Sequence record: OL770073.2
Length of the DNA stretch: 64,000 nt
Direction: 5' to 3' (one strand)
Origin: Escherichia phage vB_EcoM-RPN226
The notes under the pieces were generated by a model, which worked only from the letters and a program-made list of their open reading frames with translations, ran no database searches and was not told where the DNA came from. The stretch's first letter is position 1. Each line of letters begins with the position of its first letter. Of the stretch, positions 39,741 to 41,099 are shown piece by piece. The translations under genes were made by a program, and so were the position numbers.

Positions 39741-39813
39741 TGGGAATTAGCCAAGTTGGTAAGGCATAGCACTTTGACTGCTAGATGCAAAGGTTCGAGT
39801 CCTTTATTCCCAG
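39741..39813 (+). tRNA. tRNA-Gln (anticodon TTG)
   Basis: acceptor stem TGGGAAT/ATTCCCA, T-arm GGTTCGAGTCC, anticodon loop CTTTGAC read by hand. Confidence 0.8.
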
Positions 39814-39814
39814 C

Positions 39815-39901
39815 GCGAGAATGGTCAAATTGGTAAAGGCACAGCACTTAAAATGCTGCGGAATGATTTCCTTGTGGGTTCGAGTCCCACTTCTCGTACC
39901 A
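39815..39901 (+). tRNA. tRNA-Leu (anticodon TAA)
   Basis: acceptor GCGAGAA/TTCTCGT, long variable arm, T-arm GGTTCGAGTCC, encoded CCA; forms a dimer unit with tRNA-Gln. Confidence 0.8.
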
Positions 39902-39907
39902 AAGTTT

Positions 39908-39978
39908 GCGGATATCGTATAATGGTATTACCTCAGACTTCCAATCTGATGATGTGAGTTCGATTCTCATTATCCGCT
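39908..39978 (+). tRNA. tRNA-Gly (anticodon TCC)
   Basis: acceptor GCGGATA/TATCCGC, anticodon loop CTTCCAA, T-arm GTTCGATTC. Confidence 0.8.
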
Positions 39979-39992
39979 CAAATTTAATTTAC

Positions 39993-40065
39993 TCCGTGTA
40001 GCTCAGTTTGGTAGAGCGTCTGCTTTGGGAGCAGAATGTCGCAGGTTCAAATCCTGCCGCGGAGA
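39993..40065 (+). tRNA. tRNA-Pro (anticodon TGG)
   Basis: D-arm TAGCTCAGTTTGGTAGAGC, anticodon loop TTTGGGA, T-arm GGTTCAAATCC. Confidence 0.8.
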
Positions 40066-40067
40066 CT

Positions 40068-40154
40068 GGAGGCGTGGCAGAGTGGTTTAATGCACCGGTC
40101 TTGAAAACCGGCAGTCGCTCCGGCGACTCATAGGTTCAAATCCTATCGCCTCCG
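40068..40154 (+). tRNA. tRNA-Ser (anticodon TGA)
   Basis: acceptor GGAGGCG/CGCCTCC, long variable arm, anticodon loop CTTGAAA, T-arm GGTTCAAATCC. Confidence 0.8.
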
Positions 40155-40161
40155 TAATTTC

Positions 40162-40234
40162 GCTGATTTAGCTCAGTAGGTAGAGCAACTCACTTGTAAT
40201 GAGGATGTCGGCGGTTCGATTCCGTCAATCAGCA
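40162..40234 (+). tRNA. tRNA-Thr (anticodon TGT)
   Basis: acceptor GCTGATT/AATCAGC, D-arm TAGCTCAGTAGGTAGAGC, anticodon loop CTTGTAA, T-arm GGTTCGATTCC. Confidence 0.8.
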
Positions 40235-40240
40235 TATCAA

Positions 40241-40312
40241 GGCCCTGTAGCTGGAAGGTTCAAGCAAGCGACTCATAATCGCCAGATGGTGGTTCAATTC
40301 CACCCAGGGCCA
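40241..40312 (+). tRNA. tRNA with CAT anticodon (Ile by T4 analogy, would be called Met by anticodon alone)
   Basis: acceptor GGCCCTG/CAGGGCC, anticodon loop CTCATAA, T-arm GGTTCAATTCC. Confidence 0.7.
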
Positions 40313-40319
40313 TATTTTG

Positions 40320-40360
40320 GGAACATAAATACTCTTAGAAATAGGAGATATTTATGTTCC
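40320..40360 (+). promoter_or_regulatory. 12-bp perfect hairpin sequestering segB start codon; SD in loop
   Basis: GGAACATAAATA (40320-40331) pairs with TATTTATGTTCC (40349-40360); ATG 40354-40356 in 3' arm; loop carries AGGAGA; 5' arm contains CATAAATA, a near-late-promoter. Confidence 0.6.
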
Positions 40361-41019
40361 ATTACACTTATAAAATAACAAATAAAATTAATAATAAAAT
40401 CTATATAGGCGCTCATTCTACCGAAAATTTAGATGATGGATATATGGGTTCTGGTAAATTATTAAAAAGAGCCCAAGACAAGTATGGTATAGAAAATTTC
40501 TCTAAAGAAATATTAGAGTTCTTTGACGATAAAACCTCTATGTTTGAGTCAGAAAAGAATATTGTGACTGAAGAGTTTTTAAAGCGCCCTGATGTTTATA
40601 ATTTGAAATTAGGTGGTGAAGGTGGTTGGGACCATTTAAACACTAAAGAATATTTGGATAAAAAGAAAGAAGCTTCCTTAAAAGGGGCTGCTGCTTTTAA
40701 AACCAGATTTGAGAACGACCCAGACCTTAAAGAAAAATATCGTAAAATGGGTTCAGAAAGGTTTAAACAGCTTTGGGATAATCCTAAGTATAGAGAGAAA
40801 TTTTTAAATACTAAATCTTTCTTGGGTAAGACCCATACTCCTGAAACTATTAATAAAATGAAAGAATCTCACGCCAAAAATAAACACCAACAAGGCGAAA
40901 AGAATTCCCAATTTGGTATGATGTGGATTCATTCATTAGATGAAAAAGTTTCTAAACGTATTAAGAAAACTGACCCAATTCCAGAAGGATGGTTTAAAGG
41001 TCGAAAAATGAAATTTTAA
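40354..41019 (+). CDS. segB: GIY-YIG homing endonuclease SegB-like, embedded in tRNA cluster
   Basis: 221 aa, GIY-YIG motifs YTYKITN...KIYIGAH; start codon sits in the 3' arm of a 12-bp perfect hairpin. Confidence 0.8.
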   Translation: MFHYTYKITNKINNKIYIGAHSTENLDDGYMGSGKLLKRAQDKYGIENFSKEILEFFDDKTSMFESEKNIVTEEFLKRPDVYNLKLGGEGGWDHLNTKEYLDKKKEASLKGAAAFKTRFENDPDLKEKYRKMGSERFKQLWDNPKYREKFLNTKSFLGKTHTPETINKMKESHAKNKHQQGEKNSQFGMMWIHSLDEKVSKRIKKTDPIPEGWFKGRKMKF

Positions 41020-41022
41020 TTA

Positions 41023-41099
41023 CGGGGCATAGCTCAATTGTATAGAGCAACGGACTTCTAATCCGTAGGTTGAAGGTTAGAATCCTTCTGTCTCGACCA
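41023..41099 (+). tRNA. tRNA-Arg (anticodon TCT)
   Basis: D-arm AGCTCAATTGTATAGAGC, anticodon stem-loop ACGGA-CTTCTAA-TCCGT, T-arm GAAGG-TTAGAAT-CCTTC, encoded CCA; acceptor stem needs two G-U pairs. Confidence 0.7.

Follow-up and report, generated by a model that had tools for sequence, protein, structure and literature searches.

What is a cluster of eight transfer RNA (tRNA) genes doing in a phage, and why does a gene for a homing endonuclease stand inside it? The question is raised by positions 39,741 to 41,099 of a 64,000-nucleotide stretch of DNA from Escherichia phage vB_EcoM-RPN226 (record OL770073.2), which we will call the window and whose positions we use throughout. In an earlier reading of the bare sequence (the original prediction), hand folding gave tRNAs for Gln, Leu, Gly, Pro, Ser, and Thr, a tRNA with a CAT anticodon, then segB, and then a tRNA-Arg. 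We are confident that this locus, with segB, is a Tequatrovirus tRNA operon of the T4 type, which has already been described in the literature. We are just as confident of an overall reading in which a T4-type operon would serve mainly to supply codons, its CAT-anticodon tRNA would be an Ile2-type reader of AUA, its SegB would be a selfish element, and its tRNA-Thr would have a secondary role. As the cluster, the Ile tRNA, the codon rationale, and homing by SegB are textbook knowledge or published, what is new comes down to details at the level of alleles and to two predictions that can be tested.

ARAGORN called exactly eight tRNA genes in the window, all on the plus strand. The Rfam model RF00005 found the same eight independently, with scores of 57 to 70 bits (the gathering score is 29) and E-values of 1e-9 to 3e-13, so a chance origin of these calls is excluded. 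The order of the genes, their anticodons, and the two ends of the cluster were as hand folding had given them, and no anticodon was assigned otherwise. In this respect, the hand folding was cleanly validated by the gene finders.

Comparison with other phages identifies the locus. A 2.1-kb region matches many Tequatrovirus genomes (with Escherichia, Shigella, Salmonella, or Yersinia as the host) over its full length at 98% identity, and for the block of seven tRNA genes, the identity to deposited records reaches 99.8%. The genes lie on one strand in the order Gln-Leu-Gly-Pro-Ser-Thr-Ile, segB, Arg, rnaD, rnaC, as they do in T4 (NC_000866, 70.9-72.5 kb, minus strand). The orientation and the eight anticodons are also those of T4, segB is in the same slot, a promoter-like head precedes the first tRNA, and a terminator follows rnaC (Table 1). 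In T4, the neighbours of the cluster are trna.2-4, ipI, and 57B at one end and the e.x genes at the opposite end. The window shares 57B, trna.4, and trna.2 with T4, but it lacks the open reading frame (ORF) trna.3, and its downstream ORFs differ in size from e.8 and e.7. The corresponding locus of T2 and T6 begins with the same three tRNAs (Gln, Leu, and Gly), and T6 also has segB followed by tRNA-Arg. Unlike the window, T2 lacks segB and tRNA-Thr, has the ORF trna.1, and adds tRNAs for Tyr and Asn, while T6 lacks the Pro and Ser tRNAs and adds one for Tyr.

Table 1. Features of the operon in the window, with the enrichment of each tRNA's cognate codon in the phage ORFs
Feature	Position	Strand	Cognate codon (fold over E. 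coli)	Basis and remarks
Putative MotA-type middle promoter	39647-39671	+		TGCTTTA, 12-nt spacer, TATTAT
tRNA-Gln (UUG)	39741-39814	+	CAA (1.6)	ARAGORN; Rfam 66 bits; 73/73 identical to T4; CCA not encoded
tRNA-Leu (UAA)	39815-39901	+	UUA (2.1)	ARAGORN; Rfam 57 bits; 83/84 identical to T4; long variable arm; CCA at 39899-39901
tRNA-Gly (UCC)	39908-39979	+	GGA (2.8)	ARAGORN; Rfam 65.8 bits; 71/71 identical to T4; CCA not encoded
tRNA-Pro (UGG)	39992-40066	+	CCA (1.6)	ARAGORN; Rfam 70.2 bits; non-T4 allele, 84% identity
tRNA-Ser (UGA)	40067-40155	+	UCA (2.8)	ARAGORN; Rfam 62.6 bits; 88/88 identical to T4; long variable arm
tRNA-Thr (UGU)	40162-40234	+	ACA (2.6)	ARAGORN; Rfam 70.2 bits; 72/73 identical to T4, mismatch at position 27
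CAT-anticodon tRNA, predicted Ile2 type	40241-40312	+	AUA (3.0)	ARAGORN; Rfam 59.9 bits; T2-type allele
segB, free-standing GIY-YIG homing endonuclease, 221 aa	40354-41019	+		Pfam; identity to T4 and T6 SegB
tRNA-Arg (UCU)	41023-41099	+	AGA (6.0)	ARAGORN; Rfam 69.2 bits; encoded CCA; Mosigvirus-type allele, U19-A56
rnaD homologue (T4 species 2)	41101-41220	+		T4 annotation via pairwise alignment; 106/121 identical; fold z-score -2.5
rnaC homologue (T4 species 1)	41227-41365	+		138/139 identical to T4; fold z-score -4.7
Intrinsic terminator	41416-41439	+		10-bp stem with 7 G-C pairs, then a T-run

The operon does not stop at tRNA-Arg. Downstream of it lie homologues of two stable RNAs of T4, rnaD and rnaC, and then an intrinsic terminator, none of which was part of the earlier account. 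Both RNAs fold better than shuffled controls. The end of the rnaC homologue is like that of a tRNA, with a T arm and an acceptor-like stem, and GGTTCGAATCC stands at 41343; the 3' part of the homologue gave a weak tRNA-like alignment in Rfam (17 bits, below the threshold). Rfam held no family for either RNA, and the permissive scan otherwise returned sub-threshold noise. In T4, rnaC and rnaD are without known function (PMC3014915). The terminator is also annotated at the corresponding place in phage fPS-2. At the other end, a string resembling a MotA box occurs only once in the window (0.08 occurrences are expected by chance). T4, T2, one Mosigvirus, and a contig from IMG/VR have it conserved, together with a leader of about 60 nt, ahead of their first tRNA gene. 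By the MotA-box consensus, we take this TGCTTTA at 39647 to be a putative MotA box, and it would presumably act as a promoter. Given the promoter-like head, the two stable RNAs, and the terminator, the operon extends from about 39647 to 41445 and is not merely 39741-41099.

How would this operon be expressed? The eight tRNA genes, rnaD, and rnaC would form a single unit between the conserved head and the strong terminator, and, judging from the biology of T4, the unit would be transcribed into precursors that contain several tRNAs each and are cut and finished by host enzymes. The 3' CCA is encoded only in tRNA-Leu and tRNA-Arg (two of the eight genes, as compared to four genes in T4), so the other six tRNAs depend on the host's CCA-adding enzyme. 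For instance, tRNA-Gly is followed by CAA here and by CCA in T4, and there is a 2-nt insertion after tRNA-Thr, whose T4 counterpart encodes the CCA.

The original prediction held that the anticodons suit the A-ending codons of an AT-rich phage and proposed comparing the codon usage of the late genes with that of the host. We made this comparison with 82 non-overlapping long ORFs that cover 91% of the window (10,497 codons on the late strand and 7,484 on the early strand). The E. coli reference was a codon table, which we checked on four K-12 genes (1,568 codons, r = 0.92). All eight cognate codons are enriched over E. coli (by 1.6- to 6.0-fold, Table 1), with ranks of 1, 3, 5, 6, 7, 11, 17, and 19 among 61 codons (Mann-Whitney test: P = 8.6e-6 against the codon table, P = 1.8e-4 against the 1,568-codon sample). 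Each of the eight is also commoner in the late-strand ORFs than in the early-strand ORFs, and a phage tRNA is present for all six of the most enriched A-ending codons. These statistics support codon supply as the main function of the cluster. As to the mechanism, a phage with 36% GC content would place a heavier demand on A-ending codons, especially in its late structural genes, and the phage tRNAs would supplement the minor isoacceptors with which the host reads CAA, UUA, GGA, CCA, UCA, ACA, AUA, and AGA.

Which amino acid does the CAT-anticodon tRNA carry? It had been proposed to be a tRNA-Ile that reads AUA and requires lysidine, and our comparisons support this. Host TilS would convert C34 of the tRNA to lysidine, which would switch it from AUG and Met to AUA and Ile. 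The positive determinants for E. coli TilS are C4-G69 and C5-G68, while tRNA-Met has U4-A69 and A5-U68, which act negatively; TmcA, which makes N4-acetylcytidine (ac4C) in tRNA-Met, needs C27-G43 and C30-G40, and G44 contributes (PMC2500205). In the ARAGORN cloverleaf, the acceptor stem of the phage tRNA consists of G1-C72, G2-C71, C3-G70, C4-G69, C5-G68, U6-A67, and G7-C66, with A as the discriminator. Both of the positive determinants are there and the negative ones of tRNA-Met are not. Its anticodon arm has A27xC43, G30-C40, and A44, so a comparison of the anticodon arms found none of the TmcA determinants (C27-G43, C30-G40, and G44), and we did not find the features of an initiator (a mismatch at 1:72 and three G-C pairs at 29-31:39-41) either.

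The relatives of this tRNA point the same way. The best match in the whole E. coli genome is annotated as tRNA-Ile, and the identity is 76-79% to the tRNA-Ile2 genes ileX and ileY, 71% to metT, and 66% to metV. The phage tRNA has the CAU anticodon, the anticodon loop, and the stem pairs G28-C42 to A31-U39 (including C29-G41) of the E. coli tRNA-Ile2, as well as its C4-G69, C5-G68, and discriminator A73. A D stem of 3 bp, an unusual D loop, and A27xC43 in place of G27.U43 set it apart from those tRNAs. It is exactly the T2 gene, whose record reads "methionyl-tRNA, CAU anticodon probably modified," and it is one nucleotide off a Vequintavirus gene that is annotated as tRNA-Ile, "codon recognized: ATA." The T4 gene in the corresponding slot is also annotated as tRNA-Ile, but with only 65% identity between the two alleles, the Ile identity cannot simply be transferred from T4. 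Altogether, the assignment as an Ile2-type AUA reader and a predicted substrate of TilS is well supported.

The label "Met(cat)" that ARAGORN gives to this tRNA carries no weight, because the proven tRNA-Ile of T4 receives the same label. Furthermore, the "tRNA-Met" of T6 (3070-3146 of the T6 stretch that we compared) is identical to the tRNA-Ile of T4, and the allele that T2 shares with the window has the TilS determinants. So, the Met labels on the CAT tRNAs of T-even phages (in T6, at 3451-3525 of the T2 stretch that we compared, and in many GenBank records) are probably wrong. A widespread habit of annotation, in which the CAT tRNA of T2-like and T6-like phages is called Met, would thereby be corrected.

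Why is the cluster split? The original prediction had placed segB between the CAT tRNA and tRNA-Arg, and a 221-aa ORF for SegB does sit there, as published work explains. It matches the GIY-YIG domain (PF01541 in Pfam, 25.7 bits as compared to a cut-off of 22.6). Over all 221 residues, the protein is 84% identical to the SegB of T4, with a diverged middle part, and 81% identical to that of T6. Its N-terminus, MFHYTYKITNKINNKIYIG, holds Y17 and G19, and the double change Y17A/G19A gives a catalytically dead SegB in T6 (PMC13096335). We conclude that the ORF encodes the GIY-YIG homing endonuclease SegB, a selfish element, and we predict that it is active in cleavage. The SegB of T4 cuts inside tRNA genes at a 27-bp site with the T-arm motif GGTTCRANTCC as its core, and in crosses with T2L, which lacks segB, its action causes the tRNA region of T4 to be inherited at about 99.6% (PMC2330249). 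In the same way, the SegB of the window would cut the DNA that encodes the T arms of relatives without segB, so that the whole tRNA region would be inherited preferentially. Across phages, there is a statistical association between segB and tRNA genes; under pressure from Septu, SegB can also promote the amplification in tandem of a tRNA-Tyr/segB unit, and under pressure from OLD or ToxIN, that of distant anti-defence genes (PMC13096335). Under such pressure, this SegB may drive local gene amplification as well.

In the operon, the core motif of the SegB site is present in the genes for the Gln, Leu, Pro, Ser, Thr, and CAT tRNAs and in rnaC; tRNA-Gly and tRNA-Arg have no exact match. The sole exact match outside of the operon is at 14024 (plus strand), in a late-gene region that is coded on the opposite strand.

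As compared to T4, the cluster is a mosaic of alleles (based on about 10 hand-picked records). The Gln, Gly, and Ser tRNAs are identical to those of T4, and Leu and Thr are one nucleotide off each. In contrast, the Pro, Ile, and Arg tRNAs differ: tRNA-Pro is 84% identical, with compensated changes in its stems, and tRNA-Arg cannot be aligned with the tRNA-Arg of T4. These non-T4 alleles recur in T2, Mosigvirus, and Vequintavirus. In particular, tRNA-Arg is one nucleotide off the allele of a Mosigvirus whose only tRNA genes are a CAT and Arg pair and which has no segB. The homology to this Mosigvirus is confined to the 77-bp Arg gene and stops exactly at its borders. We considered whether segB had been inserted into a CAT-Arg pair of the Mosigvirus type, but we rejected this because the homology lies in the Arg gene only and the CAT allele of the Mosigvirus differs. 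IMG/VR scans gave four loci with the pattern of this tRNA-Arg and four loci with relatives of SegB (one of them close), which is too few for population statistics.

The Arg allele has an unusual feature. Its D loop (about 41036-41044) has G18-U19 and its T loop (41075-41085) has U54-U55-A56. Of the ten relatives compared, six combine T19 with A56 and four combine G19 with C56, and none is intermediate. From these sequences, we read U19-A56 as a covariation of the near-universal tertiary pair G19-C56. The same allele breaks the core of the SegB site (GGTTAGAATCC as compared to GGTTCRANTCC), with loss of a conserved C. Could U19-A56 make the gene that adjoins segB immune to the nuclease? The idea of self-immunity is weakened by the presence of the allele in the Mosigvirus that lacks segB, and because of this, any link between U19-A56 and immunity to SegB is speculative.

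A separate observation concerns the IMG/VR contig IMGVR_UViG_2974739009_000001, where ARAGORN called a 94-nt "tRNA-Stop" at 980-1073 (minus strand) with the anticodon TTA, which would read UAA. It lies about 530 nt from a CAT and Arg pair that has the Arg allele of the window. It may represent a suppressor-like tRNA, or the call may be false.

The other allele-level detail is in tRNA-Thr(UGU), and it bears on the suggestion in the original prediction that phage tRNAs can replace host tRNAs cut by anticodon nucleases. This suggestion is partly supported and applies at best to tRNA-Thr, which has changes of a resistance type. ARAGORN called no Lys, Tyr, or Asn tRNA in the window, and those are the species with a demonstrated ability to defeat PrrC, PARIS, Septu, and retron-Eco7 (PMC13096335). 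Resistant tRNAs of other phages include Lys, Thr, and Asn of T5 against PARIS and Tyr of T5 and T6 against retron-Eco7 and Septu.

The host's tRNA-Thr(UGU) is a target of the PARIS nuclease AriB, which cleaves it in U36AAUCA41, between positions 40 and 41 (tRNA-Pro(UGG) is a minor target) (PMC12409363). P2-OLD kills mainly via tRNA-ThrU, and a protective phage tRNA-Thr (tRNA-Thr6) is set apart from tRNA-ThrU by G30C/C40G (CUG to CUC) and by U43A, which unpairs 27:43; both changes are required (PMC12445682). In host thrU, the anticodon stem is 27-ACUGA-31 / 39-UCAGU-43, with G30-C40 and A27-U43. In the window, it is ACUCA / UGAGG, with C30-G40 and an unpaired A27xG43, so that it has both G30C/C40G and a broken 27:43 pair, with G rather than A at position 43. 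The change at position 40 also puts a G in place of the C at the scissile position of AriB. The tRNA-Thr of phage fPS-2 (ACUCA / UGAGA) has precisely the published protective changes, whereas in T4 and T6 (CCUCA / UGAGG) 27:43 is paired as C27-G43. The sole base that sets the tRNA-Thr of the window apart from that of T4 is position 27 (at 40188), which is A instead of C. By the published two-factor rule, we infer that the alleles of the window and of fPS-2 would be resistant to OLD and that the allele of T4 and T6 would not. This fits with the strong restriction of T6 by OLD (PMC13096335). We propose that tRNA-Thr(UGU) may replace the host tRNA that is destroyed by Toprim tRNases (AriB of PARIS and P2-OLD), while resisting cleavage itself. 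Counter-defence is thus plausible as a secondary role that is at best limited to this tRNA. This prediction, for 27:43 of tRNA-Thr against OLD and PARIS, and the one for U19-A56 of tRNA-Arg against SegB tie into current work on defences that target tRNAs. It is doubtful that the non-T4 alleles as a group are adaptations to conflict, with A27xG43 of tRNA-Thr resisting P2-OLD and possibly AriB, and U19-A56 of tRNA-Arg blocking cutting by SegB.

Could counter-defence be the primary role of the whole cluster, with nuclease-resistant substitutes for destroyed host tRNAs and codon matching as a secondary matter? The general hypothesis that phage tRNAs are nuclease-resistant substitutes has been published (PMC10264068), the changes in tRNA-Thr agree with it, and all but one of the seven non-CAT tRNAs have an anticodon stem or loop unlike that of the host cognate. 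We still consider it unlikely because the rescue species Lys, Tyr, and Asn are missing from the cluster (for want of tRNA-Tyr, T4 cannot escape Septu; PMC13096335), because T6 remains restricted by PARIS and OLD with a tRNA-Thr of its own, and because all eight anticodons fit the expectation from codon supply. Also, the anticodon arm of tRNA-Ser is identical to that of host serT, so no resistance is expected for Ser. Another explanation would make the tRNA genes mainly the cargo and the target of a selfish SegB, with homing and recombination maintaining and shuffling the cluster whether or not the phage benefits. This would account for the mosaic of T4-like, T2/Vequintavirus-like, and Mosigvirus-like genes, for Arg homology that stops at the gene borders, and for the different tRNA sets at this locus in T2, T4, and T6. 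It also agrees with the cutting of tRNA genes by SegB, with the almost complete inheritance of the region when T4 is crossed with T2 (PMC2330249), and with the association of segB with tRNA genes (PMC13096335). However, tRNA genes are still kept at this locus in relatives without segB (T2, Mosigvirus, and Dhakavirus), the set of anticodons is non-random relative to codon usage, and the compensated stem substitutions in the Pro, Arg, and Thr tRNAs and the covarying 19-56 pair argue for selection for functional tRNAs. We therefore regard this explanation as very unlikely. Less likely still is an alternative in which the CAT tRNA would be a normal elongator tRNA-Met and not an AUA reader. Besides the labels from ARAGORN and from most GenBank records, this alternative has in its favor the anticodon loop CUCAUAA, which is common to the Met and Ile2 tRNAs of E. 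coli (including ileX), and the 71% identity to metT. It conflicts with the acceptor pairs at 4:69 and 5:68, the lack of the TmcA determinants, the greater likeness to ileX and ileY, and the annotations of the T2 and Vequintavirus genes. Moreover, AUA is 3-fold enriched in the phage, and an extra tRNA-Met would only duplicate a species that is abundant in the host.

Some observations count against our preferred reading, a T4-type operon for codon supply with an Ile2-type tRNA, a selfish SegB, and a secondary role for tRNA-Thr. The enrichment of the cognate codons is a correlation, and it is partly produced by AT bias alone, because AAA, GUA, and CUA are also enriched (1.7- to 1.8-fold) and have no phage tRNA. 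The E. coli reference for codon usage is in part a codon table that was checked on only a small sample of genes. The 3-bp D stem and unusual D loop are the main oddity of the CAT tRNA; its allele shares only 65% identity with the tRNA-Ile of T4, which has been characterised by experiment, and most records label it Met. Lysidine at position 34 and charging with Ile are predictions for this phage. A generic sigma-70 promoter scan gave sites that were not above chance. Finally, that T6 is strongly restricted by both OLD and PARIS, its own tRNA-Thr notwithstanding (PMC13096335), limits any anti-defence role.

Upstream of the operon lie gene 1 (for a deoxynucleoside monophosphate (dNMP) kinase), the 57B gene, and the homologues of trna.4 and trna.2. 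The 57B homologue (38312-38767, plus strand), about 1 kb upstream, is Acb1, a phosphodiesterase that counters the cyclic-oligonucleotide-based anti-phage signaling system (anti-CBASS; PF23474 in Pfam, E = 6.6e-60). An Acb1/57B gene also adjoins tRNA genes in Klebsiella phage Roth16. Between this gene and the operon (38840-39643), the internal-protein slot holds a 90-aa ORF (38840-39112) without a Pfam match. T2 and T6 have other internal-protein genes in the slot (ip5, ip6, and ip7), so it is hypervariable. Farther away, near the right end of the window, there is a group I catalytic intron at 63428-63659 on the plus strand (RF00028 in Rfam, 103 bits, E = 1.4e-25).

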